A stretch of DNA of 64,000 nucleotides from the NCBI GenBank assembly GCA_964563385.1, contig CAZLVV010000002.1:154-64153 (forward strand). Reading direction: 5' to 3'. Position 1 is the first letter of the stretch. Each line of letters starts with the position of its first letter. Positions 15,995 to 54,786 of this stretch are shown one piece after another. The notes beneath the pieces are model-generated. The model saw nothing but the letters and a program-made list of their open reading frames with translations. It had not been told where the DNA came from and did no database searches. Source of the DNA: an uncultured Gammaproteobacteria bacterium (lineage in GTDB: Bacteria > Patescibacteriota > Patescibacteriia > 2-12-FULL-60-25). Position numbers and translations under genes: made by a program.

Positions 15995-16887
15995 GGCTTT
16001 AGAGGACCGATTAATAATCTAACTTTCGTGTCGGATATCGTTACATCTTGAATTCCATATCCATTATCTAAAAGAATTTTCCAAGTGCCAACATCTCTTT
16101 CAAAAAAATATCCAATCATTTGCATAGACAAACTGCCAGGTATTGGCAAATCGCCAATTTTAGCATCTTTAACTTCCAACATAACTGTTCCATTATTATG
16201 CAATACGGGCATCATCTTTACTAATATTTGCGCCTGAAAAATCTCTTTCCATGTTATATAAAAATACATTTCAATTTCATCCTGCAAAAATACAACTTGC
16301 GCAATTTCAACTTTATACTCCGGATTACGCAATCCTTGATGCACAACTCCTTGCAATAAACCCGTAAAATCTTTTTCACTTACATCCAAAGCAATAGGAA
16401 TCTGATTATCCACGCTTTTTTCTTGCAATCTTTTTGTTAAACTATCACTAAATTGATTCCAATCCTGCGGTTGCGCGATTACTATTCTGGTCGGTTTAGG
16501 CGCATTGTAAAAATTAGCAAAAATCGGCAAAGCCAATAATCCTGATTTTAATAAAAAAAATAAAATTATCAAAATAAAAATTAAAAATGTTGCCAAAATC
16601 AAAATTCCACTGCTAAAAATATCTCCCCAAATTATTTTAGCCGGTTTTACAATCCTTTCCTTTTCAGAAACAGGCTTCAGCGTTGGCAAAGGCGGTATTA
16701 AATTTTGTTGATTCGCTTGTTTTGTTTGAAAATCGTCATTAATAGAACTTGTTGTAATCAAAGGAGGAGTTTCTTGAGGTAACGGAGGTATTGGAGGAAT
16801 ATTGACAGTTGGAATTTCATTCGCACTTTCCATGCTTTTAACTTGTTCCAAATTATTTTCTATATTTGTTTTTTCTTCATCAGGCAT
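15991..16887 (-). CDS. single-pass membrane protein with Pro-rich N-terminal region, unknown function
   Basis: 298-aa ORF. PPIPPLPQETPPLI tract and a central TM helix (SGILILATFLIFILIILFFLL). Translationally coupled to the downstream gene. Confidence 0.6.
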   Translation of the reverse strand: MPDEEKTNIENNLEQVKSMESANEIPTVNIPPIPPLPQETPPLITTSSINDDFQTKQANQQNLIPPLPTLKPVSEKERIVKPAKIIWGDIFSSGILILATFLIFILIILFFLLKSGLLALPIFANFYNAPKPTRIVIAQPQDWNQFSDSLTKRLQEKSVDNQIPIALDVSEKDFTGLLQGVVHQGLRNPEYKVEIAQVVFLQDEIEMYFYITWKEIFQAQILVKMMPVLHNNGTVMLEVKDAKIGDLPIPGSLSMQMIGYFFERDVGTWKILLDNGYGIQDVTISDTKVRLLIGPLKP

Positions 16888-18579: not shown

Positions 18580-18970
18580 GGGGATGCCGAGCTTCGACGG
18601 TGCGTTTCAACTTATTCTGCAGGTCGAGCTGATACAACTCGTTAAACTGCATCAAAAACGATAATTGCCAACATCGTAGAAAAAGCTAAAGCCGCCATTG
18701 CCAACGCAATGCGCGCGCCTCAAGCTGTACCGGTTCTCGCTTAAGACAACCGTCGATCCCCGTAATGAGCTCGTCATTACGGCGTGTATCGTCATATTAC
18801 GAGCTAAGGTTTACATTCCGGCGCCAATGTAAACACAAAAAGGCATGCGCCAACAGTTATCGCAACTCGCTTGCTCCAAGCGATAACTGTATATTTGAGC
18901 AAGCCAAGCCTGTGAAGATGAATAAGCGGTTCGTATCCGGACAGGGGTGCAACTCCCCTCATCTCCACCA
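18580..18970 (+). ncRNA. ssrA: tmRNA (SsrA)
   Basis: The 5' GGGGATG pairs with the 3' CATCTCC-A-CCA to form a tRNA-Ala-like acceptor with a G3:U70 wobble. T-arm GGGGTGCAACTCCCC. Internal tag frame 18667-18744 (GCC AAC ... GCT TAA). Adjacent to smpB. Confidence 0.9.
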
Positions 18971-20499: not shown

Positions 20500-22938
20500 A
20501 TGTTAAAACAAGAAGGGTTATCATCTCCATCTTCTCAAGAAAAATTTTCTTCCAAGCAAGAAAAGCAACCAAAAATTAAAGAGATAAAACAACTTGCACC
20601 CGAATCACAAGAGGCGCAAAATTTTTATATTTCCACTGAAAAACTTTTAGATAAATATCATCAAAATCTTATCCAATACAATAAAGAATTGATGTCTTCC
20701 TCATATAATGATGAAATTGCAAAGGACCTAAAAACAGAATTACAACAGATGTGGGATCAGCTTCATAACCTTACGCCTACAATCAAAGAACATGAATACA
20801 TGGTCTTGGATCAAGATATAAAAAATAAAATGATAGAACTATCTAATGAAATAGATAATCTACCCACATTTCCCGGCCAAGATCTCGAACCTCGTGAAGC
20901 TAAAAAACCAGCATTAAATCGCAACATTGATACAGTTATTGTTAATCGCGAAAACGCCAAAAAACAAGCAGAAGAGCATCTTCGCAATCAAGAAAAAGTC
21001 AAAGCCATGCGTAAACAATTAGCTAAGCTCAAGTCATCGTTTGCGGGTAGCTATAAAATGAACACAGTTCACGCTTCAATTTTACTACCACAAATTGTTG
21101 CCTTGCATAAAAATAAAGGCGTTCAACAAAAAGGACAAGGAGGAATTTTAAATTGGATCAAAAACATCGCTGGAGCCCCAGATAAATCAACAAGTAAATT
21201 TACAGCCGAAGAAAGAGCCAAATATTTAGCATTAGATTTAACAAAATTTAAAGCTGATCTCAAAGAAATTCAACAAAGAGAAAAAGAATATAACACCCTT
21301 TGGAATCAAGTTCAAAAAACTGAAAAAAGCAAAAATTTTGATATTGTCGAAGATTTGGAACCTGATGACAGTATCAGCTTTGTAACCCTACGCGAAGGCT
21401 TCAATGATGAAATTCGTAATGCTTACAATGAAGGAGACTCTGCCAAAGCACTACAGTTAAAACAAGAATTGGATGAAGCTTATAAAAATCTACAGGCTCA
21501 TTTCCCAGAAATTTTGCGAGAACGAGTAGAGCAATATCCAATGGATAATTTTTCCGATCAAGAATCCATAAATCCAACCGAAGTTACTCGCGAATTCGAA
21601 TCAGCTAAAACTTTAAAAACACAAAGCACTAAAGACTTAGAAATTGAGTCTGCTGTTACACTTAAAACTCAAAAAACCGAACAACTAGAAAAAGAAAAAC
21701 AAGTAGAAGCAGAGAGAAAAGAAAGACAAGCAAAAATCGAGGAAACCATCAAATCTTTTGGAGGTGATGAAAAAGCTCGACAAAAAGCCTCACAAATGTG
21801 GGAAGATGCTTTTGTAAAATTAGCCATGGTTGAACGCTCCGGTATATTGGAACCAGGTAAAAAAATTGGAAACGCTTTAGATTATGTTCATGCTTACGCC
21901 ACCATGCAAATGAAAGCCACCGAAATGGAACAATTGATGGCTCAAGCTGAGCAAAAAATCATTAATGATACAATAGATTCTTTTGGAGGAGGAGAAGCTG
22001 GCAGAGACAAAGCTGGAGAAATTTGGAATTTAGCCAATCAAATGATGGGTCAAGATTCTTCAGAAGCCGAAGTGCAACGTCAATTTGGTTTTACGCGCAT
22101 GGAATATGTTGAAGCTTGGGCTGATTTATCCAAGGCTCATATCAAAAAAGACAAGGATCTTATAGAATCATTGGAACAACGAGTATACAACATGACTAAA
22201 AAATTATTAGGAGAAGAAGGTCAAAATCTAACCAAAAAACGTTTTGACTCAGAATGGAATTTCTTAGTCGATTCTGGTGCTTCTCGTATGGGAAACATGC
22301 GCGGAATTGGTCAAAATCGCGCCCGCCAAGAATTAGGTCAGCAAATTGAAAAAATTTCTGGCCCGCAACCTATCGAGCTAACTACCGAAGCTTCTCGTAG
22401 CACCGAACGCATCTCCGGTCCCAAAGCATATAGCATGGAATGGGCCATGAATTTATTACCTAATGCCAATTTAGAATGGGATAAAATTGCCAACACTATT
22501 TCTGCAAAACCTTACAATGAACGTAGAACAATATTAAACACCATTAATAATGAAATAAATAATCTTATTAATAAATTAAATCGATTAGATGACATATCTG
22601 AAGAATATAAAAATCTTAAAGCAATAACCGAGATTATGGTCGGGAATCCACCAGAAGCGACTCGTTATGTCATGCTTAAAGTTTTCACGGATGGGGCTTT
22701 TTTCAACGTCAAACCCAATGATGCAAAAGCTAAAAAAGCCATTCTAGATACAATTAAAGCCATAGATCAATTATTAAAATCCAAGCCTGAAACTAAATCT
22801 AAATCCTCACTAAAAGAAGAGTCACCTACTCTAAAAAATAAAGATCTTGTACCAACATTAAAAAGAAAGCCTACTAAAACATTAAAAAGACCTAAAAAAC
22901 CAAGCTCATCACACTCTCCAACTTTAAGAAAAAAATAA
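20500..22938 (+). CDS. large Lys/Glu/Gln-rich coiled-coil-type orphan protein with basic C-terminal tail
   Basis: 812-aa uninterrupted ORF with no signal peptide. Internal duplicated segment (IKSFGGDEKARQKASQMWEDAF / IDSFGGGEAGRDKAGEIWNLAN). C-terminus KRKPTKTLKRPKKPSSSHSPTLRKK. Confidence 0.7.
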   Translation: MLKQEGLSSPSSQEKFSSKQEKQPKIKEIKQLAPESQEAQNFYISTEKLLDKYHQNLIQYNKELMSSSYNDEIAKDLKTELQQMWDQLHNLTPTIKEHEYMVLDQDIKNKMIELSNEIDNLPTFPGQDLEPREAKKPALNRNIDTVIVNRENAKKQAEEHLRNQEKVKAMRKQLAKLKSSFAGSYKMNTVHASILLPQIVALHKNKGVQQKGQGGILNWIKNIAGAPDKSTSKFTAEERAKYLALDLTKFKADLKEIQQREKEYNTLWNQVQKTEKSKNFDIVEDLEPDDSISFVTLREGFNDEIRNAYNEGDSAKALQLKQELDEAYKNLQAHFPEILRERVEQYPMDNFSDQESINPTEVTREFESAKTLKTQSTKDLEIESAVTLKTQKTEQLEKEKQVEAERKERQAKIEETIKSFGGDEKARQKASQMWEDAFVKLAMVERSGILEPGKKIGNALDYVHAYATMQMKATEMEQLMAQAEQKIINDTIDSFGGGEAGRDKAGEIWNLANQMMGQDSSEAEVQRQFGFTRMEYVEAWADLSKAHIKKDKDLIESLEQRVYNMTKKLLGEEGQNLTKKRFDSEWNFLVDSGASRMGNMRGIGQNRARQELGQQIEKISGPQPIELTTEASRSTERISGPKAYSMEWAMNLLPNANLEWDKIANTISAKPYNERRTILNTINNEINNLINKLNRLDDISEEYKNLKAITEIMVGNPPEATRYVMLKVFTDGAFFNVKPNDAKAKKAILDTIKAIDQLLKSKPETKSKSSLKEESPTLKNKDLVPTLKRKPTKTLKRPKKPSSSHSPTLRKK

Positions 22939-25148: not shown

Positions 25149-26390
25149 TTAGTTAACAATAATCCTGATCTTATCTTTCATGCTTGGCAATCTTTGCACC
25201 CAATTTGGTTGCAGATTCACATCAACTTCTTTAACTCCATCAATTGCAGACCATTTACGAATAACTTCATCCATAGGCAAGCCAACTATGGTATCTTTGC
25301 GAAAAACCGAACTGGATTCAGTAAGTTTACTCATTGCTTCGGCTTTTACAGCCAAAGTGGCTGTGCCTTTTGATTCGTCGGCTTTATCCAATTTAAATGA
25401 TATTTGCGACATATCAATATCGGATAATGAATAACCTTCAGGCAATTTTTGTGTCAATTTTGTTCTTATTAAAGAAGCCAAATCTTCTTTGGGAAAGAAT
25501 ACTGCGGTTACCGTTATTCTCACTTGAGCCATAAATCTATCCATTATTTGTCCCGGCGCCGCATTGCTTTGTTTTTTTGGTTCAGTCACCCAAAAAATCG
25601 ACTCCCACGACGGATCAGCTCCAGCCTCTAGTGTCAAAGTTTTTTTGGCTGTTTCAAAAACTGTAGCATATAATTTTTCTTGAGCTTTGGCTATAGCATC
25701 GGCAGTCACCATTGTTAATGGACCAGAACTGCTATTCTCGCCTACAATATCCGTAATCGTTTCAGCAAATATTTTATCTTGCAAACCTTCCCAAAGGCCG
25801 GGAATAGTCATCTTTACTCCTTTATTAATTTCAAATTCAAAACCCTCTTTGTCCGAAGTAATTTCAACCTCAACCGACCCTCCTGCTGGCACACTGATAT
25901 TTTTATTTATTCTGTAAAGTTTATTATCATTCGTCAACAATCTCGTTGTGGCCACCAAAGGCTGTTCTTTTGAATAGTTATTAATAATTTTAACCTTGCC
26001 CGTAGTTTTAGTTGGAACTCTAGGCGTATCCACACTCGGTTCTATTGGTAGTACCTCATATTCTTTGGCTTCAACATATGTGCCACTAACAATCCTGCCT
26101 CGTATTTGATTGGATTCCGGCGAAGTGGCAATATCAACAAACGTCTCAACTCCAATAGGCTCTTCATCAACCGTTACTGTTATAGTTGCTTTTACTGATG
26201 ATGTCCATAATGCTACCGCTATAACCGCCACGGTCATTAAAACAAAAGTAACAGCTATATTTCGAAATGTTTTTGGAGTTGCTGGTTGCGGAAAAGTACT
26301 TCTAGACATTCCATGGGAAAGTTTAATAGCCATACTAATATAGTATAACACAACAATTAACAAAACTAAAATAATCAATAGAATAAACAA
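25149..26390 (-). CDS. membrane-anchored hypothetical protein
   Basis: 413-aa ORF with N-terminal TM helices (MFILLIILVLLIVVLYY; FVLMTVAVIAVALW) and a large extracytoplasmic domain. No family assigned. Confidence 0.65.
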   Translation of the reverse strand: MFILLIILVLLIVVLYYISMAIKLSHGMSRSTFPQPATPKTFRNIAVTFVLMTVAVIAVALWTSSVKATITVTVDEEPIGVETFVDIATSPESNQIRGRIVSGTYVEAKEYEVLPIEPSVDTPRVPTKTTGKVKIINNYSKEQPLVATTRLLTNDNKLYRINKNISVPAGGSVEVEITSDKEGFEFEINKGVKMTIPGLWEGLQDKIFAETITDIVGENSSSGPLTMVTADAIAKAQEKLYATVFETAKKTLTLEAGADPSWESIFWVTEPKKQSNAAPGQIMDRFMAQVRITVTAVFFPKEDLASLIRTKLTQKLPEGYSLSDIDMSQISFKLDKADESKGTATLAVKAEAMSKLTESSSVFRKDTIVGLPMDEVIRKWSAIDGVKEVDVNLQPNWVQRLPSMKDKIRIIVN

Positions 26391-30638: not shown

Positions 30639-30914
30639 ATGTTAAGTGATATCCCCAAAAAACTAGCGGGCTTAAACCCTGAACAAATTGATCAAGAAAT
30701 TTGTCGAGCCGGGCTAATGGCCGAACTTGACGCCATTAACCTCTACGAACAAATGTCGGCATTAGCTCAAGATCCTAAACTCAAAGAAATGTTAGCTGAT
30801 ATTGCCAGAGAAGAAAAAACCCACGTGGGCGAATTTCAAACTCTTTTGCTCCAAAAAGACGCGGAACAAGTTACAGAAATGGAGCATGGTAAAAAAGAAG
30901 TGGAAGAGATGTAA
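30639..30914 (+). CDS. small ferritin-like / rubrerythrin-type four-helix protein (EncFtn-like motifs)
   Basis: 91 aa. E-x-x-x-x-x-Y (MAELDAINLYEQM) and EEKTH (IAREEKTHVGEF) di-iron-type ligand pattern. A terminator follows. Confidence 0.6.
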   Translation: MLSDIPKKLAGLNPEQIDQEICRAGLMAELDAINLYEQMSALAQDPKLKEMLADIAREEKTHVGEFQTLLLQKDAEQVTEMEHGKKEVEEM

Positions 30915-30944
30915 CCTGAACAATAGAATAATAGTAAAATAAAA

Positions 30945-30973
30945 AATCAAAGCAATTCGCTTTGATTTTTTTT
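30945..30973 (+). terminator. rho-independent terminator after the ferritin-like gene
   Basis: AATCAAAGC-AATTC-GCTTTGATT followed by T6. It abuts the degenerate terminal CRISPR repeat. Confidence 0.65.
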
Positions 30974-30974
30974 A

Positions 30975-33900
30975 TTAACACTAAGTAGAAATTTAATAAA
31001 GCTATTTAACATCTAAATTATGAGATAGCTATGTTATATCTGCAAAAGTAGAAATTTAATAAAGCTATTTAACATCTAAATTATGAGATAGCTATGTTAT
31101 ATCTGCAAAAGTAGAAATTTAATAAAGCTATTTAACTTTTGCCGCTGGAATAGCATCCGAAATCTACAAAAGTAGAAATTTAATAAAGCTATTTAACCAT
31201 GAGTTACTCGTTAAGGAGTAATTATCTACAAAAGTAGAAATTTAATAAAGCTATTTAACATCTAAATTATGAGATAGCTATGTTATATCTGCAAAAGTAG
31301 AAATTTAATAAAGCTATTTAACTTTTGCCGCTGGAATAGCATCCGAAATCTACAAAAGTAGAAATTTAATAAAGCTATTTAACCATGAGTTACTCGTTAA
31401 GGAGTAATTATCTACAAAAGTAGAAATTTAATAAAGCTATTTAACGTGGTATCCCCCCCCTATGTCTCTCATCTACAAAAGTAGAAATTTAATAAAGCTA
31501 TTTAACAAAAAGTTTTTGGTGGGGCAATTGTATCTACAAAAGTAGAAATTTAATAAAGCTATTTAACGACTGTTTCCGGCTCCTACATTTGAATCTACAA
31601 AAGTAGAAATTTAATAAAGCTATTTAACTAGTTGATTTAATCAAAACTATTGAAATCTACAAAAGTAGAAATTTAATAAAGCTATTTAACTTCATCATGA
31701 ATCAACCAATCGGCGATCTACAAAAGTAGAAATTTAATAAAGCTATTTAACTTGAAACAGGAGAAACGAAAGTCAGATCTACAAAAGTAGAAATTTAATA
31801 AAGCTATTTAACTAATGTTAATCCGCAAGACTTATTGGATCTACAAAAGTAGAAATTTAATAAAGCTATTTAACTTGTTTTGGCTGATGGTATGTCGTTT
31901 ATCTACAAAAGTAGAAATTTAATAAAGCTATTTAACAACAAATACGGAAAAATATGAAAGAATCTACAAAAGTAGAAATTTAATAAAGCTATTTAACAAC
32001 TTCTACTGACAACAACTTAGAGATCTACAAAAGTAGAAATTTAATAAAGCTATTTAACAACGGAAGTTCCATTTTGTTTTCATATCTACAAAAGTAGAAA
32101 TTTAATAAAGCTATTTAACGAGATTGAGACCTCTTCTAAACCGAATCTACAAAAGTAGAAATTTAATAAAGCTATTTAACAAACAGGAACACATCCAAAC
32201 AACTAATCTACAAAAGTAGAAATTTAATAAAGCTATTTAACTAAACATAAAAGAAATAAGAATAAAAATCTACAAAAGTAGAAATTTAATAAAGCTATTT
32301 AACTTAAAATTGGCTCATACACCTGATACATCTACAAAAGTAGAAATTTAATAAAGCTATTTAACATGTATGTAAGTCCGCTTGTGCATTATATCTACAA
32401 AAGTAGAAATTTAATAAAGCTATTTAACCATTGTTGCATTCTCTAATCCGACACAATCTACAAAAGTAGAAATTTAATAAAGCTATTTAACAGCGACGCG
32501 ACGATCAAAACACTAAAATCTACAAAAGTAGAAATTTAATAAAGCTATTTAACAGCATTAGCTCAAAAACAAACATTCAAATCTACAAAAGTAGAAATTT
32601 AATAAAGCTATTTAACTTTTTTTGTATATTTTTTCATATAGATCTACAAAAGTAGAAATTTAATAAAGCTATTTAACTCCTGTAAAAGCTCTTTACCCCT
32701 ATCATCTACAAAAGTAGAAATTTAATAAAGCTATTTAACTTTAGCTATTCTTGCTGTTGTTGGTATCTACAAAAGTAGAAATTTAATAAAGCTATTTAAC
32801 ATTAACTAATGCAAAAAAAGATTTAATCTACAAAAGTAGAAATTTAATAAAGCTATTTAACCGATGTCGGTTGAGCAAATGTTCAAATCTACAAAAGTAG
32901 AAATTTAATAAAGCTATTTAACTGAGGTGTTTTTAGTTAGACGGAATGGATCTACAAAAGTAGAAATTTAATAAAGCTATTTAACACCAAATAAAACAAA
33001 ATTTAGAATTATCTACAAAAGTAGAAATTTAATAAAGCTATTTAACTTGTGCAGTCTCAAGTAAAGTATCTTGATCTACAAAAGTAGAAATTTAATAAAG
33101 CTATTTAACAGGAGTGCTTCAACTTACGATGTTGATCTACAAAAGTAGAAATTTAATAAAGCTATTTAACCACAATGTTAGATTTAAGATTCATATATCT
33201 ACAAAAGTAGAAATTTAATAAAGCTATTTAACATTCAATTTGAAGGAAGAGAATATTATCTACAAAAGTAGAAATTTAATAAAGCTATTTAACAAAATAA
33301 AAGAAAAACAAATTCCAAATCTACAAAAGTAGAAATTTAATAAAGCTATTTAACAGATCGGACTGCTAGGTGGGTGCAGATCTACAAAAGTAGAAATTTA
33401 ATAAAGCTATTTAACAAAGAAAGACGCTAGAAAAGTTATTATCTACAAAAGTAGAAATTTAATAAAGCTATTTAACTAGACGCCTATAGGTACCACCGCA
33501 GATCTACAAAAGTAGAAATTTAATAAAGCTATTTAACCACCCACCTGGCTGTCCTGTCTTCGATCTACAAAAGTAGAAATTTAATAAAGCTATTTAACTG
33601 AAAGCTATTGCGCGGACTCGCAAATCTACAAAAGTAGAAATTTAATAAAGCTATTTAACTTTATATTAGTCCTTACCTTACGGCAAATCTACAAAAGTAG
33701 AAATTTAATAAAGCTATTTAACGACAGGGCAAATAATTTAGTTTCTCTATCTACAAAAGTAGAAATTTAATAAAGCTATTTAACCTGTGGCTTTAAGCGT
33801 TGCATACGTAATCTACAAAAGTAGAAATTTAATAAAGCTATTTAACAATAATTTGGTTCTGAACGCCGATGTATCTACAAAAGTAGAAATTTAATAAAGC

Positions 33901-34339
33901 TATTTAACATGGTGTTAGCTCTAACACTGGCTGTATCTACAAAAGTAGAAATTTAATAAAGCTATTTAACTATTCCTCAATAATCCTCTGGCTTGGATCT
34001 ACAAAAGTAGAAATTTAATAAAGCTATTTAACACCACATCCGCTACGTCCTCGAGAAATCTACAAAAGTAGAAATTTAATAAAGCTATTTAACTATCTTC
34101 CGGCGTTTCCGGCGTATTATCTACAAAAGTAGAAATTTAATAAAGCTATTTAACAAACACAAACGGTAAGAGGCAGTTTAATCTACAAAAGTAGAAATTT
34201 AATAAAGCTATTTAACACGTGGAGGATGTTATTGGTGATCCGATCTACAAAAGTAGAAATTTAATAAAGCTATTTAACGTATCGTTTTTCCAAGTTGGCG
34301 GAAATCTACAAAAGTAGAAATTTAATAAAGCTATTTAAC
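30975..34339 (-). CRISPR. CRISPR array: 55 x 36-nt repeats, 54 spacers (25-27 nt, 50 unique), type V-A repeat
   Basis: Every unit was enumerated by hand. The plus-strand repeat is ATCTACAAAAGTAGAAATTTAATAAAGCTATTTAAC. Its reverse complement is GTTAAATAGCTTTATTAAATTTCTACTTTTGTAGAT, ending in the Cas12a handle. First repeat 30975-31010 is degenerate. Last repeat 34304-34339 adjoins the leader and cas2. Confidence 0.97.
31074..31445. repeat. 2 x 186-bp tandem duplication of a three-spacer block inside the array
   Basis: Units 31074-31259 and 31260-31445 have the same order: spacer A (27 nt), variant repeat, spacer B (25 nt), repeat, spacer C (26 nt), repeat. A third copy of spacer A lies at 31011-31037. 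Confidence 0.95.
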
Positions 34340-34502
34340 TCTTGGATTCGCTTTATTAAGCAAAAAAGATACAAATAATCCAAGATTTAGAATTACGACT
34401 TTTAGCTTAATAAAGCGAATTTTAAAAAATTAAGACCAAGGTTTTGCATTTTTTAAAATAGTTTTACAGAATTTATACTTTTAAATTGTCAAAGTGCTTA
34501 TA
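34340..34502 (-). promoter_or_regulatory. CRISPR leader (AT-rich, between cas2 stop and first repeat)
   Basis: 163 bp. A TTGACA hexamer lies on the minus strand at 34487-34492. A 16-bp perfect inverted repeat ATTCGCTTTATTAAGC (34346-34361) / GCTTAATAAAGCGAAT (34405-34420) is present. No ORF. Confidence 0.6.
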
Positions 34503-34784
34503 TCAACCTATACATATTAAATCCGATTCTTCATGTTTAGCATAACCATAACGCTTTATCTTCTTTTTACAACCTTCACATACCTGAAAAATAACTATAC
34601 TATCCGCTCCTGTAAATTCTTTTTTATATCTCAATTCTACCTCAGTGAGAATATTTTGCAATACCCGCGCGCTATCTTTAATCTCCCAAACAGAGTATTG
34701 AATTCTATTACCCCATTTTTCTAAAAATCTCGCAAATCTCGCGCGTGTTTTATTATTCTCAAAATCATAAGAAACTATAAGCAT
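34503..34784 (-). CDS. cas2: CRISPR-associated endoribonuclease Cas2
   Basis: 93 aa. MLIVSYDF...ARFARFLEKWGNRIQYSVWE is a ferredoxin-like Cas2 pattern. It starts 1 nt downstream of the cas1 stop. Confidence 0.9.
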   Translation of the reverse strand: MLIVSYDFENNKTRARFARFLEKWGNRIQYSVWEIKDSARVLQNILTEVELRYKKEFTGADSIVIFQVCEGCKKKIKRYGYAKHEESDLICIG

Positions 34785-34785
34785 A

Positions 34786-35754
34786 CTATCTTATTACAAA
34801 ATCTCGTAACTCATTCTCATTATTAAGAATATAATAATAATGATCGCGTATATAATTATAAATTTCCATTTTATTTTTTAATATGGCTTCTAAAAAAATT
34901 TTCGAATATTTTACATTTTTTTTATAGGAAAGATAATATTGACCTTTAATAACTCCAAAATCTTTAGAATCAAACCTGCCTAAATTATGCATTTTAATTA
35001 ACTCTTTATCTATAATGCATCTAAAAGGCTCCATCATATCGCACGCTAAAGATTTTCTTTGGAAGAATAATTTATGATATATGCCTTTATAAGTATCAAA
35101 ACCATACAGTCGCAAGATAGAATCTACAAAATTAAACAAATAAGTATACCCCATGTCTAACAAAATATTATTTTCATCAATTTTCCCTCGCGGTATACGA
35201 CGATGCCAATTTATTTGCTTAAAATAAGTTTGAAAAAAATCTTTCGAAACCGCGCCTTCAATACCACGCAATGATGCAAAATCTTTTGCTTTTTCAATTT
35301 GACTTATAACTGATTTTTTATAAATTGTTCTACTTTCTTCATTAATCGTATCAATCTCCGCTCCTCTTAAAAGAGCCAATTGATTGCTTATTTTATTGCT
35401 TACTATATGTTTAGCAATTATTAAAGCCCGTTCTTCATCCATTGTATACTGCTTAGCGCGTAATAAATAATTCCCTTCTGCATAAGAATTGATAGTCGCA
35501 TATATTTCCAAATTTTGCTTTAATAAAAATACCGAAGCGCCAACTTTATTTAATTTTTGTAATATTTTACTTGTAATTGTTACATCACCAACAACAAATA
35601 CGGCTAACAGTTTGTTTACTGGTATTTTATTTATAGTAACGCCTTCACTCTGGATAAAAACATTTTCATTACGCAAACTTAAATTACACTTTGGTAATTC
35701 CGAAGCTTCTAGAAAAAAAATTTGTTTTTCTTTAAAGTCAGGCGCTTGTATCAT
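34786..35754 (-). CDS. cas1: CRISPR-associated endonuclease Cas1
   Basis: 322 aa. Conserved C-terminal core LRGIEG...NILLDMGYTYLF...GIYHKLFFQRKSLACDMMEPFRCIIDK (E/H/D metal site pattern). Confidence 0.92.
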   Translation of the reverse strand: MIQAPDFKEKQIFFLEASELPKCNLSLRNENVFIQSEGVTINKIPVNKLLAVFVVGDVTITSKILQKLNKVGASVFLLKQNLEIYATINSYAEGNYLLRAKQYTMDEERALIIAKHIVSNKISNQLALLRGAEIDTINEESRTIYKKSVISQIEKAKDFASLRGIEGAVSKDFFQTYFKQINWHRRIPRGKIDENNILLDMGYTYLFNFVDSILRLYGFDTYKGIYHKLFFQRKSLACDMMEPFRCIIDKELIKMHNLGRFDSKDFGVIKGQYYLSYKKNVKYSKIFLEAILKNKMEIYNYIRDHYYYILNNENELRDFVIR

Positions 35755-36317
35755 ATTTTTTTACACAATTCACAGTATATACAATTGTGGCATTTAGTTT
35801 TGTTTGTATTATAATTAGTTATAAACGGATCAAATTCGCGTATGGCTTTTAATGTGCAATTAAATTTTTCTTTTATTTCATTATCAACTTTAACTTCAAA
35901 TGTTTTGTTATCAATTAGCGAGTGAATAAACATTGCTTTAATCTCATATCCCATTTCTTCCATGCATAATTTTTGCGCGTATAACTGAAAAATATACCCA
36001 TCATAAACATGATTTACTTTTCTTTTTCTCTCAACTAATCGTTTAGTCTTTTTATCGTAAATATCAATCTTGCCAATTATTCCATATTGCTCAGAAAACA
36101 CTTCCAACCCCTGTAAACAGTCTTTCTCTGATGAGTATTTTTTTGCGTCAATACTTTCATGCGCTATAGCGCCTGCAATTTGAGGTTTTGCCTTATATTC
36201 ATTATGATCAAAGCTTTCATAAACAGCATGAAAATATAATGAATACGGACAAAAAACATAATCATTTATTTTAGATATTTGAATATAATCATACATAAAC
36301 AACCATATCCTATGCAT
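35751..36317 (-). CDS. cas4: CRISPR-associated RecB-like exonuclease Cas4
   Basis: 188 aa. N-terminal Cys (VFCPYSLYF), IGKIDIY...ERKRK (D...ExK), FQLYAQ (QxxxY) and C-terminal CHNCIYCELC Fe-S cysteines. 4-nt overlap with cas1. Confidence 0.9.
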   Translation of the reverse strand: MHRIWLFMYDYIQISKINDYVFCPYSLYFHAVYESFDHNEYKAKPQIAGAIAHESIDAKKYSSEKDCLQGLEVFSEQYGIIGKIDIYDKKTKRLVERKRKVNHVYDGYIFQLYAQKLCMEEMGYEIKAMFIHSLIDNKTFEVKVDNEIKEKFNCTLKAIREFDPFITNYNTNKTKCHNCIYCELCKKI

Positions 36318-36352
36318 GATTTAATCATTTTGTCTAGATGTTAAGGTTAAAA

Positions 36353-39300
36353 TTACCCTACCTTGTTACTTTTTTGCGCAAAATTATCCCATTCTGTATC
36401 GCTTATATTTATATTTAAATCTTTCCAAGATAATTTGTTGCAATTACCTTGTTTATTCGCATGATCCGTAATTTTTTGCAAAATAATAATGCCTTTTCTT
36501 GCAATATTATACGCGCCATTATCATCTCCATTTTTTGGAAGTTCTTTTCCAAATTTTTCAGGATTTCGGCTATCAAAAAATGGCTTCACGGGAGAAAGAA
36601 TAAAATCATCTTTACATTCATGCTTAGCCTGTTCACTATCATCGGTATTACGTATTTGACAGATTAAATTAAAAAAGAAAATTAGATGCTCAAAAAACTT
36701 TTCATTTCCTTTTGTTTCTAGTTTTTCAATCTGAGCTTTAATATCATCATTAATATTTATTCCATACTTTTCAAAAAGCTCCTTCAAATTAGCAGGTTTT
36801 GAGCTTTTGAGATTTATATTCTCTACTTTACCATCGGTTAAATTAAAATAATGAGTATATCCACCAATATTATTATTCAAGCTTTTATTCCATTTAAATC
36901 GCTCTACATTCGAGCACACAGTCCAAACTGTATTCTTTGGATATTCTTTTAGTTCTTGAAACTTTTTAATATCATATTCAAATTCAAACATTCCATTTAC
37001 AAAATCAATACGAGAAAATTTTAAAATATCTCTTTTGGCCTTTTCTGCGTTTGAGTATCTCAAATATAAATTTGGCCTCCATCCGGTTAATGGATCAATC
37101 TTAGAAGTATAGGATGCTTTAGTGTAAAAAATTATTCCTGTTTGCTTTCCCATATCTTTAAAAGAAGTAAAAGGAGCAGAAAGTTGATATGCATTAAACA
37201 AATGTCCTGCTTGTTCTGGATCTTTTTCTTCTTTATTTATTAAATAACTCAATTTATCAATAAGAGCTTTTTCAAGTTGTTGATACACGCTTTTTTCAAT
37301 ACCTCCTCGAATTTGCTTAAAACGCATATTAAGATCTTCAAAAACGATAATAGCATTATATTGGATGGCAAGTTCCGCTAACTTATGCACTACTTGAGAG
37401 ATATAACCTTTTTTGAGGTCTTTAATCCCTTCCACAGCTTGCCAGTCTTTCCGCTCTTGCAAGCGTTTTTCAGCCTTTACTTCTAATTTTTGATGATAAT
37501 CAATTGCCTTTCCTTTTTCATCCTTTCCTACTAAATTCAAACTCCCACTATCAAGAATTTCTCCCTTTTGATTAATGACAGAAAAGTATGCCAAATTTTT
37601 CTCACCCCTATCCACTCCAATAATATTTACATTAGAATTTTTTGCCAAAAATAAATTGAGGTTAGGGTTAAGCTTAAAATATCTAGCTTCATCTTTAGTT
37701 CTATTAAGCGTAATTTTAACATGAAAAAAGATTTTATCATCTTTATAACGTTTATGATTCACAACTTCTTTTCCTTTTTTATCTTTTTTTGTGCCCAATT
37801 TTTGAACATCTGTTTTTGGTCGATAAAAAATTTCCGCCTGCCCATCGAGTTTTATAGGAAAATTAAGAGAGCTATTTTCTGTAGAAAAAAGCGATTCAAA
37901 ATAAAGTGTATGCAAATTCTTTGTCCCTGTAGATCCTTTATTCCAATCTTTATTATTAATTTGAAAGAGATAAAGTTTTTTTATTTTAAAATCACATTTT
38001 GTATTTTTAAAAATTTTATAGATTCCCCTATAAAGATACTCGGCTGATATAGATTCAAAAAAAATTCTATAAAAAGATCCTTTCTTTATTTCAAGGGCTA
38101 ATTCCTTCGCTGTTTCGTATTCATTATCTTCAATTTTTTTTATAAATTTAGAAAATTCAGGGAAAAATTGTACTCGTGTTTCTAAAACTTGTTTCATTCT
38201 TTGCAGAAGCTCTATATCATTCAATTTTTCCCGATCTTCTGAATATTTGTTTCCAAAAAGACCTTTATAAACTGAACCATAAAGAGTTTTTCCATCAATT
38301 TGCTTATAAACCATTTTTTCAAAATCTTCTCCATCATCTTTATATGCTTCCGGAAACTTTAATTTATCGAATAAGGTAGGAAAATCCGTAATTCCCAAAA
38401 AATAATCTCGTTTATTTCTAAAAATAAAACTGCAATATTGCGTATTACCCTCTGGGCTATCAGGCCATCCTTTCGCAAGATTCGCTTTTTCAAAATTTAA
38501 TTTCCATTTTTCCAAATCATATGTTTTTTTTGTTAAATAATTACGTAGTTTGTTATACACCTGAACAATCTCTTCATAAGCATTTTTATAAAATTGCAAA
38601 TATCCATTTATAGGATCCGTATAAAAAACATCAAGCTTATATTCAGTGTTCCATCTTCGCTTTTTCTCTACAGAAAAATATTTTGCCATTTGATAAATAG
38701 TCAAAACAGAATCAGCATAATCTTTAATTGCAACTTTTGCTTTTGAATCTATTTTCAAATCTTCAATCAATCTTTTCAAATCCTCTTGAAAAACAGAATA
38801 TCCTATTTTTTTATTATTAATTTCTCTTTCAAAAAGAGAAGAAAATTCATAATTTAAAATAGCTAAAAATTGCTCCCAAAGCGTTCTTTCTTCAAATTTT
38901 AAAACCTCATAATATCTTTCTTTCCAAAATTTTAGCGCAACTACTGTTTGCGAATCATTTATTTTCATTGCTTTTACGGCTTCTACTTCTATTGCTTCTA
39001 AAGCGTTTTTTATATGACAAAGCGCAAAAAAATCAGGAAACGAATATCCTCCTTCCTTCTGTTTAGCCTTTTCAGCAGAAGATGTAACAATATTAGCCTC
39101 TTTAAGAACCTTATAAAGAGAGTCTTCAAAACCATCTGTTTCACTTGTCCATTTACGCGAAATTGTATTAAAAGCTTCTTTAGAAAAATAAATTTCCTCT
39201 AAATTATAATTTTCTTGATGTTCTACAAAATCAATAAAAAGCTTTCTTAAAATTATTATTCTTTTTTCCGCCTGATGTGAAAATTCTTTCAATACATTAA

Positions 39301-40285
39301 AAAATTCTTCATCATCTTTAATTTCATCAATTAAAAATTTTTCTTTTTCACCAAGGATTTGATTATCCAAAGCAATAAAAAACGGTAATTTTTCATTTTT
39401 TTGTTGTCTATGAAGGTTAATGCATTCATTAAGCCCTTTTTTCTTTTCTCCATTTGGCAAGGTTTCTCCGCCTATAATTTTATTGTAAAAATCAATTCCA
39501 TCCTGAAGCAAACAAGAATTATAAAAATCTAAAGAAAAAATTTCAGAAAGAGCTTTTTCAAAATTATGCTCAACTTCCGTAAAATCCACTTTGTCTCGCA
39601 AACTTTCAAAAATCAAAATATTTGCGCAAAATCTCTTCAAGCTATCATTAATAATACGTGTTGCCAAAGCATAAGCGGTGCCATTATCTTTATAAAAGTT
39701 TTTTCGAGTTTCAAAAAATTTATCAAAATAACCAGTAAAACCTTTCCAACTACTAAAAACAGAAACCAGTTTTCCCGTTGATTCATCTAAAATTTCTACC
39801 GGAATAATTTCTCCATCTTTTTGTATGGGGTCATTCTGATATCTTTCTTTTAAAATAGATTCAAATACAGCCTCCTCAAAAAGAATCTCAATATCCTTAT
39901 TTTTTAAACCCTTATATTTTTTTGCCCAAAGCTCACCCTGTTTATCAAAAAATTTTACCACCTCTTTTCTTAATTTTCGCTCCTCATTTTTAAGTTTTTC
40001 ATCATTTTCCTTTTTATCAATTTTCCATTTTTTAAAAATTTCTAAATACACCTCAAGCTCTGACAATTTAACTCCTTGAAGCGCCTCACGAACAAACTCT
40101 CTATGAAGACGGTCAAAATATGATTTTGTTATTTCGTATTTTCTCTGAATCGCTTTATCTTTTTCAAAAATTTTAGCATCTTCGAGCATTTTTTGTGTAT
40201 TGCCCACCGGTTTCAATTCAAATTTTAAAGTTTTACTCAAAGAATATAGATTCGTAAGGTCGCTAAAAATATTACTTGAAGACAT
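36353..40285 (-). CDS. cas12a: class 2 type V-A effector nuclease Cas12a (Cpf1)
   Basis: 1310 aa. N-terminal LTNLYSLSKTLKFELKPVGNT. RuvC-I IIGVDRGEKNLAY, RuvC-II AIIVFEDLN, Nuc-like ICQIRNTDD...FILSPV, RuvC-III GDDNGAYNIARKG. No HNH insert. Sits directly upstream of cas4-cas1-cas2 and the array. Confidence 0.92.
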   Translation of the reverse strand: MSSSNIFSDLTNLYSLSKTLKFELKPVGNTQKMLEDAKIFEKDKAIQRKYEITKSYFDRLHREFVREALQGVKLSELEVYLEIFKKWKIDKKENDEKLKNEERKLRKEVVKFFDKQGELWAKKYKGLKNKDIEILFEEAVFESILKERYQNDPIQKDGEIIPVEILDESTGKLVSVFSSWKGFTGYFDKFFETRKNFYKDNGTAYALATRIINDSLKRFCANILIFESLRDKVDFTEVEHNFEKALSEIFSLDFYNSCLLQDGIDFYNKIIGGETLPNGEKKKGLNECINLHRQQKNEKLPFFIALDNQILGEKEKFLIDEIKDDEEFFNVLKEFSHQAEKRIIILRKLFIDFVEHQENYNLEEIYFSKEAFNTISRKWTSETDGFEDSLYKVLKEANIVTSSAEKAKQKEGGYSFPDFFALCHIKNALEAIEVEAVKAMKINDSQTVVALKFWKERYYEVLKFEERTLWEQFLAILNYEFSSLFEREINNKKIGYSVFQEDLKRLIEDLKIDSKAKVAIKDYADSVLTIYQMAKYFSVEKKRRWNTEYKLDVFYTDPINGYLQFYKNAYEEIVQVYNKLRNYLTKKTYDLEKWKLNFEKANLAKGWPDSPEGNTQYCSFIFRNKRDYFLGITDFPTLFDKLKFPEAYKDDGEDFEKMVYKQIDGKTLYGSVYKGLFGNKYSEDREKLNDIELLQRMKQVLETRVQFFPEFSKFIKKIEDNEYETAKELALEIKKGSFYRIFFESISAEYLYRGIYKIFKNTKCDFKIKKLYLFQINNKDWNKGSTGTKNLHTLYFESLFSTENSSLNFPIKLDGQAEIFYRPKTDVQKLGTKKDKKGKEVVNHKRYKDDKIFFHVKITLNRTKDEARYFKLNPNLNLFLAKNSNVNIIGVDRGEKNLAYFSVINQKGEILDSGSLNLVGKDEKGKAIDYHQKLEVKAEKRLQERKDWQAVEGIKDLKKGYISQVVHKLAELAIQYNAIIVFEDLNMRFKQIRGGIEKSVYQQLEKALIDKLSYLINKEEKDPEQAGHLFNAYQLSAPFTSFKDMGKQTGIIFYTKASYTSKIDPLTGWRPNLYLRYSNAEKAKRDILKFSRIDFVNGMFEFEYDIKKFQELKEYPKNTVWTVCSNVERFKWNKSLNNNIGGYTHYFNLTDGKVENINLKSSKPANLKELFEKYGININDDIKAQIEKLETKGNEKFFEHLIFFFNLICQIRNTDDSEQAKHECKDDFILSPVKPFFDSRNPEKFGKELPKNGDDNGAYNIARKGIIILQKITDHANKQGNCNKLSWKDLNINISDTEWDNFAQKSNKVG

Positions 40286-52029: not shown

Positions 52030-53496
52030 ATGCCACAAGGAGGAACAGCCAAAAAAACACAGCCTAATACGAGCGACAATAATCGCCCTTCTTCGAATAC
52101 GGCTAATAATAAACCAACCTCAACTCCTCCTGACACTTCGGAAATTGATGAAAATTGGGATACTCCGGCGACCTCAACTCCTCCTGACACTTCGGAAATT
52201 GATGAAAATTGGGATACTCCGGCAACCTCAACTCCTCCAGATACATCGGAAATTGATGAAAATTGGGATACCCCGGCAACCTCAACTCCTCCTGACACTT
52301 CGGAAATTGATGAAAATTGGGATACCCCGGCTAATGACAATTCTTTAACGCGTCAATCCAAGCGATTAAAGTATCCACCCGATACCCCAACCGAAAAAAG
52401 AACACCTCAAAAACCTCCCAGTAACAAAATTCTTCGCAAAACTGAACCATCAACACCAAAGATCACGCCTCGCTTAACCGGAGCCGGCTCTGCCTTGCCT
52501 ATCAGTAAAAAATCTAAAAAAAGTCCATCTCGTTCCGTTGGACCTCAAGCTATTGTAAGGCTGGTAAGCCCCATACAAATGGCTTCACGTTTACAAGCAA
52601 ATCAACAACGCGCTCGTTTAGATAATGCTCCGGGTACAGGTCCAACGCGCGAAGAAATGTTGGCCGATGCAGGCGCCGGAGGCGATCCTATTCTGCCCGG
52701 TCAATTTGATCCATTAAAAAGTCAAAGCGCTTTTGGACGTGAAGCTCAAGCTCCAGGATCCATGTCAACACCCACTAAATCAGAAACAGATGAACGCGGA
52801 GGAGGTCCTGTCATGTCTGATTTAGAACGTCAACGCGCAATGCAACTTAGTCAAGAAAAAATGGCAGCCACCGCCAGCGCAACCGGAGTTGCTGACGCAA
52901 AACAAACCGACTCCAAAGCCGAATCACCAGCTACTGTCACTTCCAGCGCAGAAACAACATCTCCATCAACCAAAGTCCCTGAACAAACAGAAGAAGAAAT
53001 CGAACAAACAACCGAAGAACAAACACCAACTGACGAAAAATCACCCAAAAAACCATCTTCAGATATTCAAACAGCGCAAAACATAGCTTCGGCCATGCAC
53101 ATGGAAAAAACCGCTAAAGCTTTAGGCGCGGCTAAAGCCATAGAAGGCAATATAGAAGCTGCACGCAAAATGCAACAATCAGCACGATCTTTTTGGAATA
53201 TTCTTAAAGCCGGTGAATTGGTGTCCAGTGTTACAATTTTTTCTTTGATAGTTTTAATAATTACAGCCAACATTCAAATGATCAATAAATATACTTTTAA
53301 AACTCGCATCATACCCTCAACATATCTCATTGAAGATGCTATCATCGTCTGCGCCGATTGCGCTTTATGCGGAGCCTCTTGTATATCCATATTCACATCG
53401 ACTGGTTTTATAATACCGATTATCGGATCCCTTCTCTGGTTAGCCGGAGTGTTAGGTTTAGATTATTTTGATATTATAGATTTAGGAATTTTATAA
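52030..53496 (+). CDS. membrane protein with long disordered Pro/Thr/Ser-rich N-terminal region carrying 4 x 18-aa tandem repeats
   Basis: 488 aa. Repeat TSTPPDTSEIDENWDTPA x4. C-terminal hydrophobic helices (VTIFSLIVLIITANI; IIPIIGSLLWLAGVLGL) with a Cys cluster CADCALCGASC. Confidence 0.7.
   Translation: MPQGGTAKKTQPNTSDNNRPSSNTANNKPTSTPPDTSEIDENWDTPATSTPPDTSEIDENWDTPATSTPPDTSEIDENWDTPATSTPPDTSEIDENWDTPANDNSLTRQSKRLKYPPDTPTEKRTPQKPPSNKILRKTEPSTPKITPRLTGAGSALPISKKSKKSPSRSVGPQAIVRLVSPIQMASRLQANQQRARLDNAPGTGPTREEMLADAGAGGDPILPGQFDPLKSQSAFGREAQAPGSMSTPTKSETDERGGGPVMSDLERQRAMQLSQEKMAATASATGVADAKQTDSKAESPATVTSSAETTSPSTKVPEQTEEEIEQTTEEQTPTDEKSPKKPSSDIQTAQNIASAMHMEKTAKALGAAKAIEGNIEAARKMQQSARSFWNILKAGELVSSVTIFSLIVLIITANIQMINKYTFKTRIIPSTYLIEDAIIVCADCALCGASCISIFTSTGFIIPIIGSLLWLAGVLGLDYFDIIDLGIL
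52117..52332 (+). repeat. 4 x 54-bp near-perfect in-frame tandem repeat
   Basis: Unit ACCTCAACTCCTCCTGACACTTCGGAAATTGATGAAAATTGGGATACTCCGGCG starts at 52117, 52171, 52225 and 52279, with only a few substitutions. Confidence 0.95.
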
Positions 53497-53556
53497 AAAA
53501 TTGATCAACCGCAGTCAAACCTATATAATAATAATAAACCAACCTCGCTTATTTAT

Positions 53557-54783
53557 ATGATCTCCATAACCGAAACTCAAAAAAAAATCTTATTTATTAT
53601 CTTTTTTGTAACTTTTACGATAGGCACCGGTTATGCTTTATATTATTTCTTTTTCAAACCTCTGCCTTCGCCCACTCTCGATACCGAAGAGACTCCACCT
53701 GCTTACACCGGCGCTCTCACACTTTCCGGCGAAAGAACTGCCGAACAACCTTTTATTCCTTCGCAACCCACAGGCCTTCCTGTTGCGGATCAGGTATCAA
53801 GTCAAATCACAGAAACCGCAACTACTGATGTTTTACGATCAAAAGTCACTCAATCTTTAAGTTTATCAAAAAATGGCCTGCCTCGTTATTACGATCCGCT
53901 TGATGGTCGTTTTTATCAACTGACTCCCGACGGAAAAGAACAAAAACTTTCCAATCGTCAATTTTTAAACGTCGAAACCATAAATTGGTCCAATATCAGC
54001 AATCAAGTTATTTTAGAATTCCCAGACGGAAGTAACATTTATTACAATTTCGATGAAGATCGCCAAGTCACTTTACCATCTCATTGGGAAGATTTTGCTT
54101 TTTCTCCTATTGAAGATAAAATTGTAGCTAAAAGTATTGGCCTAGATGAACGTAATCGCTTTTTAGTGGTGTCTGATGCTAACGGTAACGAAGCCACAGC
54201 CCTATATGAGCTCGGTTCCAATGCCGACAGAGTAATTCCCAGTTGGTCGCCAAATAACAGAGTTGTAGGGTTTTCAAAAACCGGAGATCCTTTGCCAGAT
54301 GACGGTGAAGAGATTCTTCTTTTGGGCAAAAATCACGAATCTTACAGACCTCTAAAAGTTGCCGGCAAGGGCTTTTTACCATCTTGGTCGCCAACTGGTA
54401 AACAATTGCTTTACAGTATTTATCACGCGCGTGATAACTATAAACCCATGCTTTGGATTTCTGATGCTTCAGGCGCTGAAATAGGACGAAATCGCCGTCA
54501 ATTAAATATCAATACATGGGCCGACAAATGTGTTTGGGATGATGAACAAACAATCTATTGCGGAGTTCCGATAGCCCTTCCAGATGGCGCTGGCTGGGAT
54601 CGTAATCTTGTGTCTTCAGTATCAGATAATATTTATCGTATAGATTTAAAAACCGGCACAGCAAAAAAAATCAATCAAACTCCTTTAACTCGTCCTATTA
54701 ATAACCCTCAATTAAACTCCGAACAAAACCAAATAATTTACACCGATACCATAACCGGACACTTGTATAAATTTGACCTTTAA
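53557..54783 (+). CDS. membrane-anchored beta-propeller protein with PD40/TolB-like repeats
   Basis: 408 aa. N-terminal TM. Repeated xPSWSPxxxxxxF/Y motifs (IPSWSPNNRVVGFS, LPSWSPTGKQLLYS) typical of WD40-like PD40 blades. Confidence 0.7.
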   Translation: MISITETQKKILFIIFFVTFTIGTGYALYYFFFKPLPSPTLDTEETPPAYTGALTLSGERTAEQPFIPSQPTGLPVADQVSSQITETATTDVLRSKVTQSLSLSKNGLPRYYDPLDGRFYQLTPDGKEQKLSNRQFLNVETINWSNISNQVILEFPDGSNIYYNFDEDRQVTLPSHWEDFAFSPIEDKIVAKSIGLDERNRFLVVSDANGNEATALYELGSNADRVIPSWSPNNRVVGFSKTGDPLPDDGEEILLLGKNHESYRPLKVAGKGFLPSWSPTGKQLLYSIYHARDNYKPMLWISDASGAEIGRNRRQLNINTWADKCVWDDEQTIYCGVPIALPDGAGWDRNLVSSVSDNIYRIDLKTGTAKKINQTPLTRPINNPQLNSEQNQIIYTDTITGHLYKFDL

Positions 54784-54786
54784 ACT

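Follow-up and report, generated by a model that had tools for sequence, protein, structure and literature searches.

A type V-A CRISPR-Cas locus, very probably active, in a Patescibacteria chromosome, with a variant PAM-reading module in its Cas12a

Introduction

Among the described type V-A CRISPR-Cas systems, the Francisella locus runs cas12a-cas4-cas1-cas2-leader-array and its effector, FnCas12a, uses TTN/TTV as protospacer-adjacent motif (PAM). Characterised Cas12a enzymes cut precursor CRISPR RNA (pre-crRNA) at a His/Lys/Lys set of the WED domain (H843/K852/K869 in FnCas12a), a trait that does not define the family. Here we analyse a locus with the Francisella gene order, built around a 1310-aa Cas12a (Cpf1), in a 64,000-nt stretch of contig CAZLVV010000002.1 (GenBank assembly GCA_964563385.1, positions 154 to 64,153 of the forward strand); this whole stretch is referred to as the window, and positions are counted from its first letter. 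The locus is very probably a complete type V-A CRISPR-Cas immune system, currently active, in the chromosome of a member of the Patescibacteria, or Candidate Phyla Radiation (CPR). Cas12a of CPR bacteria has been recognised since 2015 by Zetsche et al., as cited by Chen et al. 2019 (PMC6509639), and Parcubacteria PbCpf1, Peregrinibacteria PeCpf1 and the Roizmanbacteria and Dojkabacteria loci belong there (Zetsche 2015, as cited in PMC6509639). The locus is thus of an already-known kind: it sits in a well-populated clade of CPR Cas12a, and its sequence is already public. What sets its effector apart from most of that clade is the segment expected to read the PAM.

Results

Identity of the effector and completeness of the locus

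The 1310-aa protein scores 735.3 bits (E = 1.4e-220) with the equivalog model TIGR04330 (cas_Cpf1), whose cut-off is 300, and Pfam places the Cas12a domains REC1, REC2, RuvC_1 and NUC along it (NUC at 73 bits). All 26 significant matches among solved structures are to Cas12a, with E values quoted in the range 1e-111 to 2e-142, and they span the full length of the protein, either end to end or broken into two to four stretches, with ReChb (E = 2e-142) and FnCas12a (E = 3e-126) scoring best. The initial annotation, made from the sequence alone, had called the protein a Cas12a that lacks HNH, and both statements stand, the first on the TIGR04330 score and the full-length FnCas12a match, the second on Pfam, which finds no HNH domain in the protein and only RuvC_1 and NUC as nuclease domains.

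We compared the RuvC and RNase pockets with those of known enzymes by sequence alignment. Aligned with FnCas12a (HMMER against chain 5NG6, whose numbering is two residues off native), the RuvC residues D892, E983 and D1254 and the Nuc residue R1212 fall opposite Fn D917, E1006, D1255 and R1218; none of the four varies across 118 aligned relatives. The motifs around them begin at residues 889 (IGVDRGE), 980 (IVFEDLN), 1209 (CQIRNT) and 1253 (GDDNGAYNIARKG), and the N-terminal motif LYSLSKTLKFELKPVG begins at residue 13. The protein has the Cas12a architecture of a single split RuvC fold (D/E/D) with Nuc inserted between RuvC-II and RuvC-III. The catalytic assignment proposed in the initial annotation is supported by this alignment, and the residue numbers, codons and motif positions it had counted are all exact.

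The genes cas12a, cas4, cas1 and cas2 are co-directional and tightly packed, cas12a and cas4 being 35 nt apart, cas4 and cas1 overlapping by 4 nt, and 1 nt separating cas1 from cas2. The adaptation module cas4-cas1-cas2 adjoins both effector and array and is of the type V kind by its profile models (Table 1); TIGR04328 (Cas4) and TIGR04329 (Cas1), both specific to type V, and TIGR01573 (Cas2) all score above their cut-offs, in agreement with the names that had been given to the three genes by motif. On recount, the gene coordinates, the junctions, the 163-bp leader and the number of repeats (55) were likewise as first annotated. For cas4 there are two in-frame start candidates, and public gene calls give either 188 aa (JGI) or 181 aa (Logan).

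Spacer turnover and phage targets

The array differs between sister strains at the end where new spacers are expected. Over 5783 nt, the cas operon of JGI contig L002 shows 0 mismatches to that of the window. The array of this contig, in the region 15947-16194 that corresponds to window 34143-34339, starts with two different leader-proximal spacers, after which come spacers 3 and 4 of the window. Such a difference is what polarised acquisition at the leader end leaves behind as sister strains diverge. In the Logan assembly L001 (SRR8476232, 15947-16043), a single spacer, flanked by one full and one truncated repeat, is all that is left of the 3.4-kb array; this short-read assembly artefact calls for caution with spacer counts in public contigs.

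The newest spacers match phage DNA perfectly. Spacer 1 is found over 25 of 25 nucleotides in the IMG/VR contig UViG_3300009690_000065 (L077) and in the NCBI contig L081, with the 5' flank TTTC, within a gene for a phage DnaB-like helicase. The two spacers specific to L002 each match L077 as well (25/25), and spacer 2 matches over 26 of 26 nucleotides in metagenome contigs L079 and L080, inside an open reading frame (ORF) of more than 2454 aa; the protospacers lie at 4083-4107, 10690-10714 and 13724-13748 of L077 and at 2500-2525 of L079. Since L077-L080 can be chained through shared 21-mers, we treat them as one phage lineage. A protein encoded on L081 (MWCR01000012.1, 40,247 nt) shares 99% identity with the targeted helicase. 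L081 carries the same three protospacers and flanks as L077 and is binned in the metagenome-assembled genome (MAG) 'Parcubacteria group bacterium ADurb.Bin192'; on the strength of the spacer matches, the host of the L081 phage would therefore be a CPR bacterium. The CRISPR repeat is absent from all phage loci matched, and no spacer within the window targets the window itself. The locus shows a Patescibacteria host that, in nature, keeps gaining spacers against a phage that can be identified. L081 further encodes a giant protein of 3581 aa with ART-PolyVal, Eco57I-type methyltransferase and SNF2 helicase domains.

Wider searches with the window spacers returned little: BLAST of the 50 unique spacers against GenBank phages gave chance matches only (E = 7), exact scans of IMG/VR with spacers 2-7 gave no match, and comparison of the other window spacers with L077-L081, at up to 5-6 mismatches, gave a single low-complexity chance match.

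On the crRNA-sense strand, the 5' flanks of the four protospacers read GGTTTC, GCCGTC, TACTTC and CTTTTC. All four have C at position -1 and T at -2; at -3 there are three T and one G, and position -4 reads T, C, C and T. Set against the di- and trinucleotide frequencies of the phage contigs themselves, this bias has probabilities of 1.2e-5 (TC in 4/4) and 2.8e-5 (TTC in at least 3/4). These values support a T-containing PAM on the 5' side, and with it the orientation given to the array is confirmed. Strict TTTV stands in two of the four flanks; the set fits a short TTC/KTC better than strict TTTV, four sites being too few to define a PAM. The flank of the spacer 2 target, CCGTC (L079 2490-2499, L080 263-272), falls outside TTV/TTTV; possible causes are imprecise acquisition, an escape variant and a relaxed PAM. 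In this small sample the phage genes run on the other strand from all four protospacers, and each crRNA is thereby complementary to mRNA (p about 0.06-0.13); as all called genes of the phage contig have a single direction, this bias amounts to 'same DNA strand'.

Array, leader and crRNA handle

The array consists of 54 full copies of the 36-nt repeat GTTAAATAGCTTTATTAAATTTCTACTTTTGTAGAT and one degenerate terminal copy (30975-31010) that breaks off after 28 nt, separated by 54 spacers of 25-27 nt, 50 of them unique. The full repeats are identical in 51 of 54 cases, three distal ones showing a T-to-C change (GCAGAT), and the last seven spacers at the leader-distal end (window 30975-31409) form a duplication of the pattern A B C A B C C. 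Each repeat ends at its 3' side, adjoining the spacer, in the canonical Cas12a handle AAUUUCUACUUUUGUAGAU; the repeat end AATTTCTACTTTTGTAGAT pairs into a stem of 5 bp (UCUAC/GUAGA), as is typical of Cas12a 5' handles, and the same handle is present in arrays beside relatives at 17 other loci. A search of 24-46 kb of the window for an anti-repeat of at least 14 nt found only one 14-nt A+T-rich chance match, inside dnaE, and there is therefore no candidate for a trans-activating crRNA (tracrRNA). The initial annotation had raised a tracrRNA-dependent Cas12 subtype as an alternative, to which nothing here points. An Rfam scan of the window returned a transfer-messenger RNA (tmRNA) and two tRNAs, and no CRISPR repeat family.

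Within the leader, a 21-nt inverted repeat (34346-34366 and 34400-34420, 95% complementary, arms 33 nt apart) begins 6 nt from the first repeat, and its arms hold GCTTTATTAA, which also occurs within the CRISPR repeat. Beyond the last repeat, the terminator-like hairpin of Table 1 is a possible terminator of the array transcript, common to a convergent EncFtn-like gene at 30639-30914.

A variant WED-II/PI module

Residues 601-750 of the effector make up a variant of the WED-II and PAM-interacting (PI) segment. At residues 606-617, GWPDSPEGNTQY stands in place of the usual GWDxNKExDN, with Pro at the position of K548, the PAM-contacting WED-II lysine of AsCas12a; at residues 664-678, DGKTLYGSVYKGLFG stands in place of PDxxKMxPK[VC]xFS, and the KMxPK[VC] motif is absent. 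The Pfam PI model PF22222 scores 82 bits in the nearest relative, P0005, and 81 bits in P0017. Both motif changes recur in P0006-P0011, P0016, P0035, P0037, P0051, P0058 and L008 (the variant group), and the canonical GWDxNKE and KMxPK are kept in 103 of about 180 clade members checked.

When residues 1-600 and 801-1100 are taken in blocks of 50, nearly all blocks share 74-94% identity with P0005, but residues 601-750 share 24-28%. To the variant group this stretch is 52-82% identical, which equals or exceeds the overall level of those proteins; these block values come from pairwise alignments, the multiple alignment of 118 sequences misaligning the PI region and giving spuriously low identities there. 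Because identity is mosaic in this way, the pattern indicates that a module of about 150 residues has probably been exchanged between close lineages by recombination. Residues 601-750, searched with phmmer against 1.84 billion representative proteins, gave 33 matches at E<=1e-3 (18 at E<=1e-10), the full-length ones aligning at the corresponding position of Cas12a-sized proteins and the remainder being fragments; TIGR04330 is passed by all seven module-bearing proteins tested.

AlphaFold (AF2) modelled a 356-residue WED/PI fragment with a predicted local distance difference test score (pLDDT) of 85-96 over most of the module, and the PI fragment alone with a mean pLDDT of 80. The WED-II/PI/WED-III model matches Cas12a structures from end to end (E = 3e-16, TMq about 0.5), ReChb ranking first. 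The residue opposite the PI lysine K607 of AsCas12a depends on the method, being K674 with HMMER, S670 with MAFFT and G669 by eye, and K666, within GKTLYG, is a lysine conserved in the variant group and a further candidate for the role of As K607. We considered a replacement of the PI lysine by Gly and rejected it, as the aligners put K, S or G at this place. A literature search returned nothing on the motifs of the variant module or on the PAM of Cas12a in Patescibacteria.

The pre-crRNA processing pocket

Residues named for pre-crRNA processing include H843 of FnCas12a and K785 of LbCas12a (PMC11797020), and 'a conserved histidine (H759)' is described for LbCas12a (PMC6711708). Among about 180 relatives of the window protein, the corresponding WED-III loop is 21-31 residues long in nearly all and holds no conserved His, and the residues ahead of a conserved R-[YF] are variable (NHK, DHK, QKN, EKK, KNK). 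Few relatives have a longer loop; one of these, a distant protein from a Marinamargulisbacteria MAG, has the canonical His loop together with an ILKDKRF tail. Judged from these alignments, the missing processing His is a property of nearly the whole CPR clade and not peculiar to this locus. The effector departs from characterised Cas12a in its variant WED-II/PI module and its absent processing His, both of which the initial annotation had overlooked.

Host and distribution

The named neighbours of the window DnaE (64-79% identity) are all labelled 'Patescibacteria group', Uhrbacteria or Parcubacteria, which bears out the CPR-like host first proposed, and the locus is flanked by the housekeeping genes pheST, dnaE, thrS and clpB. 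The accompanying claim of rarity and novelty was overstated. At least 14 contigs in NCBI, JGI, ENA and Logan carry identical Cas12a, Cas1 and DnaE; 305 clusters match the Cas12a at E<=1e-20, many of them named Cas12a from CPR phyla; and relatives are encoded by 74 GTDB species-representative genomes, overwhelmingly Patescibacteria MAGs, in a scanned set that does not include the host genome.

Elsewhere in the window there are a tmRNA gene (18580-18970, tag peptide ANIVEKAKAAIANAMRAPQAVPVLA) and genes for tRNA-Tyr(GTA) (882-966) and tRNA-Thr(GGT) (1036-1111). Five ORFs of 812, 413, 488, 408 and 555 aa (20500-22938, 25149-26390 and 52030-57058) have no Pfam match, and a neighbouring 588-aa protein (57104-58870) shows weak FGE-sulfatase and T4SS-pilin-like matches.

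Table 1 Features of the locus, with window coordinates, strand and basis of assignment
Feature	Coordinates	Strand	Basis
cas12a (cpf1), single effector, 1310 aa	36353..40285	-	TIGR04330, Pfam, solved-structure matches
cas4, 188 aa	35751..36317	-	TIGR04328 cas4_PREFRAN, 207 bits (cut-off 70); Pfam Cas_Cas4
cas1, 322 aa	34786..35754	-	TIGR04329 cas1_PREFRAN, 322 bits (cut-off 300); Pfam Cas_Cas1
cas2, 93 aa	34503..34784	-	TIGR01573, 45.9 bits (cut-off 24.5); Pfam CRISPR_Cas2
Leader, 163 bp, A+T-rich	34340..34502	-	Identical in sister contigs L001 and L002
CRISPR array, 55 repeats and 54 spacers	30975..34339	-	Newest spacers at the 34339 end
Spacers 1 (34279-34303) and 2 (34217-34242)	34217..34303	-	Exact protospacers in phage lineage
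RuvC-I Asp892 codon (GAT)	37610..37612	-	Aligns with Fn D917
RuvC-II Glu983 codon (GAA)	37337..37339	-	Aligns with Fn E1006
RuvC-III Asp1254 codon (GAT)	36524..36526	-	Aligns with Fn D1255
Nuc Arg1212 codon (QIRNT)	36650..36652	-	Aligns with Arg of FnCas12a QMRNS, Fn R1218
Variant WED-II/PI (PAM-reading) module, residues 601-750	38036..38485	-	No PF22222 match; identity profile
WED-III loop of pre-crRNA processing pocket, residues 820-847 (FYRPKTDVQKLGTKKDKKGKEVVNHKRY)	37745..37828	-	Sequence alignment
Terminator-like hairpin, 14-bp stem and T run	30941..30971	-	Directly after last repeat; consensus match only

Discussion

Taken as a working type V-A system, the locus would operate as follows. 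The array would be transcribed on the minus strand from the leader; Cas12a would bind the hairpin handle AAUUUCUACUUUUGUAGAU, with which each repeat closes on its 3' side, and mature the crRNAs without a tracrRNA, to products of about 42-45 nt starting at the handle AAUUUCUAC. The handle and the lack of an anti-repeat are observed, and the chemistry proposed for processing is uncertain because the usual catalytic His is absent. The crRNA-Cas12a complex would then recognise phage double-stranded DNA bearing a short T-containing PAM 5' of the protospacer, form an R-loop and cut both strands with its single RuvC site (D892, E983, D1254), assisted by R1212 of Nuc; cleavage is here carried over from the family, and the active residues are taken from alignment. 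Cas4-Cas1-Cas2 would insert new spacers of 25-27 nt at the leader end, a step supported by the spacer polymorphism between natural strains.

Several points weigh against such a reading. We infer function throughout, from homology and from natural spacer-target pairs. PF22222 finds no match to the window Cas12a even at E<=10, and the three best structural matches of the PI-only model, all Cas12a, are non-significant (E 0.07-1.5, TMq 0.41-0.49). His is absent from F820-N843 (FYRPKTDVQKLGTKKDKKGKEVVN), where no counterpart of Fn H843 / Lb H759 was found, and the position of Fn K869 / As K860 aligns with N843, H844 being the next residue. One protospacer of four has GTC in place of TTV/TTTV; matches were found for 4 of the 52 spacers of the window and L002, leaving 48 of the 50 unique window spacers without one; and since a promoter scan was at background (56 promoter-like sites against 52 expected), we claim no leader promoter. 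Some of these points recur in a refinement of the reading, in which the effector is a functionally distinct Cas12a variant: its exchanged module would recognise a PAM that is shorter or otherwise different (about NTC/KTC), by contacts that bypass the canonical lysines, and its pre-crRNA would be matured by H844/K845 and the Lys-rich loop, or by a host RNase. We regard this as a sizeable possibility that stays short of an even one. The module argues for it, matching nothing in PF22222 at E<=10 where a 70%-identical protein, P0005, scores 82 bits, carrying Pro at the As K548 position and no KMxPK[VC], sharing 24-28% identity with P0005 yet 52-82% with the variant group, and occurring in just 33 of 1.84 billion representative proteins, of which seven of seven tested are Cas12a; the C at PAM position -4 in two of four flanks, the G at -3 in one and the lack of His in residues 820-843 point the same way. 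Yet three of the four flanks are still of the FnCas12a type TTV, two of them TTTV, and four is a small number. The counterpart of As K607 shifts with the aligner, and the conserved GKTLYG lysine could fill its role; the WED/PI model aligns over its full length with Cas12a structures; and a His that is missing in nearly the whole CPR clade may simply be tolerated. PbCpf1 and PeCpf1 presumably lack it as well.

Two further explanations would take the locus out of DNA-targeting immunity or out of use, and both fare much worse. Cas12a2 shares the repeat of Cas12a and was first classed as Cas12a (bioRxiv 10.1101/2022.06.13.495973), and a Cas12a2-like effector would be an RNA-triggered, indiscriminate nuclease acting by abortive infection, with no sequence-specific cleavage of double-stranded DNA. 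The common repeat type, the related RuvC and the earlier classification of SuCas12a2 as Cas12a are compatible with this idea, as are the four of four crRNAs complementary to the coding strand, and hence to mRNA, and a 5' TTTC flank that would read as a GAAA-type 3' flank on RNA; the strand bias is, however, not significant (p about 0.06-0.13), and the protein passes the Cas12a equivalog model TIGR04330. By definition, a zinc finger replaces Nuc in Cas12a2 and an extra domain replaces the bridge helix (bioRxiv 10.1101/2022.06.13.495973). The window protein has a Pfam NUC domain at 73 bits and no CxxC motif anywhere, and its alignment with FnCas12a runs contiguously through RuvC-I, bridge helix and RuvC-II with only a 2-residue gap. 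We accordingly rejected membership in Cas12a2, there being no zinc finger, a Nuc domain present and no bridge-helix insertion, and consider such an activity extremely improbable. That the locus is a decaying or inactive relic whose immunity has been lost is also very unlikely, if marginally less so. Its leader-distal A B C A B C C duplication and T-to-C repeats could be read as decay, like the loss of the canonical RNase His and the 48 of 50 unique window spacers that stayed unmatched in the collections searched. It is usual, however, for active CRISPR arrays to degenerate at the distal end. None of the four cas ORFs is broken, the catalytic residues are invariant, and the full repeats agree in 51 of 54 cases. 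The leader end varies among strains whose cas genes are identical, and the newest spacers are perfect matches to a co-occurring phage lineage. Our preferred reading is a complete type V-A system that is currently active.

Within that reading, we tentatively put forward, as doubtful but worth stating, that the effector combines a rare, exchanged module, present in only about 20-30 Cas12a clusters among the 1.84 billion representative proteins and recognising a relaxed 5' PAM of 2-3 bases (KTC/NTC, not TTTV), with a clade-wide crRNA maturation that proceeds without the catalytic His on which all studied Cas12a enzymes rely. Since Cas12a proteins that are 70% identical carry PAM modules only about 25% identical, PAM specificity may evolve by module exchange. 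If both parts of this proposal hold, Cas12a lineages would have in PI-module swapping a natural means of changing their PAM in response to phage escape, and the module would be a ready-made part for engineering PAM range. The variant PI module bears on PAM engineering, and the absence of a conserved RNA-processing His from a large CPR clade bears on multiplex crRNA processing.

Comparison with known systems

FnCas12a of Francisella novicida U112 (PDB 5NG6, 6I1K) resembles the window system in its 36-nt repeat ending in AAUUUCUACU-N-UUGUAGAU, its lack of a tracrRNA, a RuvC D/E/D trio and Nuc Arg that correspond one to one over a full-length match (E = 3e-126), and a 5' T-containing PAM, three of the four flanks here being TTC. 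It differs in that the window protein has no PF22222 match, carries GWPDSP in place of Fn GWDKNKE and has no equivalents of Fn H843 and K869; its host is a gammaproteobacterium, whereas that of the window is a CPR bacterium. The best-scoring solved structure, ReChb (PDB 8QWD-8QWF), aligns end to end (E = 2e-142) and has the canonical GWDVNKE, MLPKVFF and a His-containing loop, which the window protein is without. Much closer is P0005, a 1281-aa protein from a metagenome assembly and the nearest public relative (70-71% identity), whose WED-III loop PKTDVQKLGTKKDKKGKEVVNHK is identical to that of the window protein and whose canonical PI domain (PF22222, 82 bits) is not shared by it. The CPR Cas12a proteins matched in NCBI, from Peregrinibacteria, Uhrbacteria, Moranbacteria, Roizmanbacteria and Gottesmanbacteria, fall in the same clade at 49-56% identity; the window protein shares with the clade the short His-less WED-III loop and the repeat handle, whereas most clade members keep the canonical GWDxNKE/KMxPK and the window protein has the rare variant module. 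'Group 1' Roizmanbacteria Cas12a has an E-to-N change in RuvC-II (PMC6509639); unlike it, the window protein keeps all its catalytic residues.

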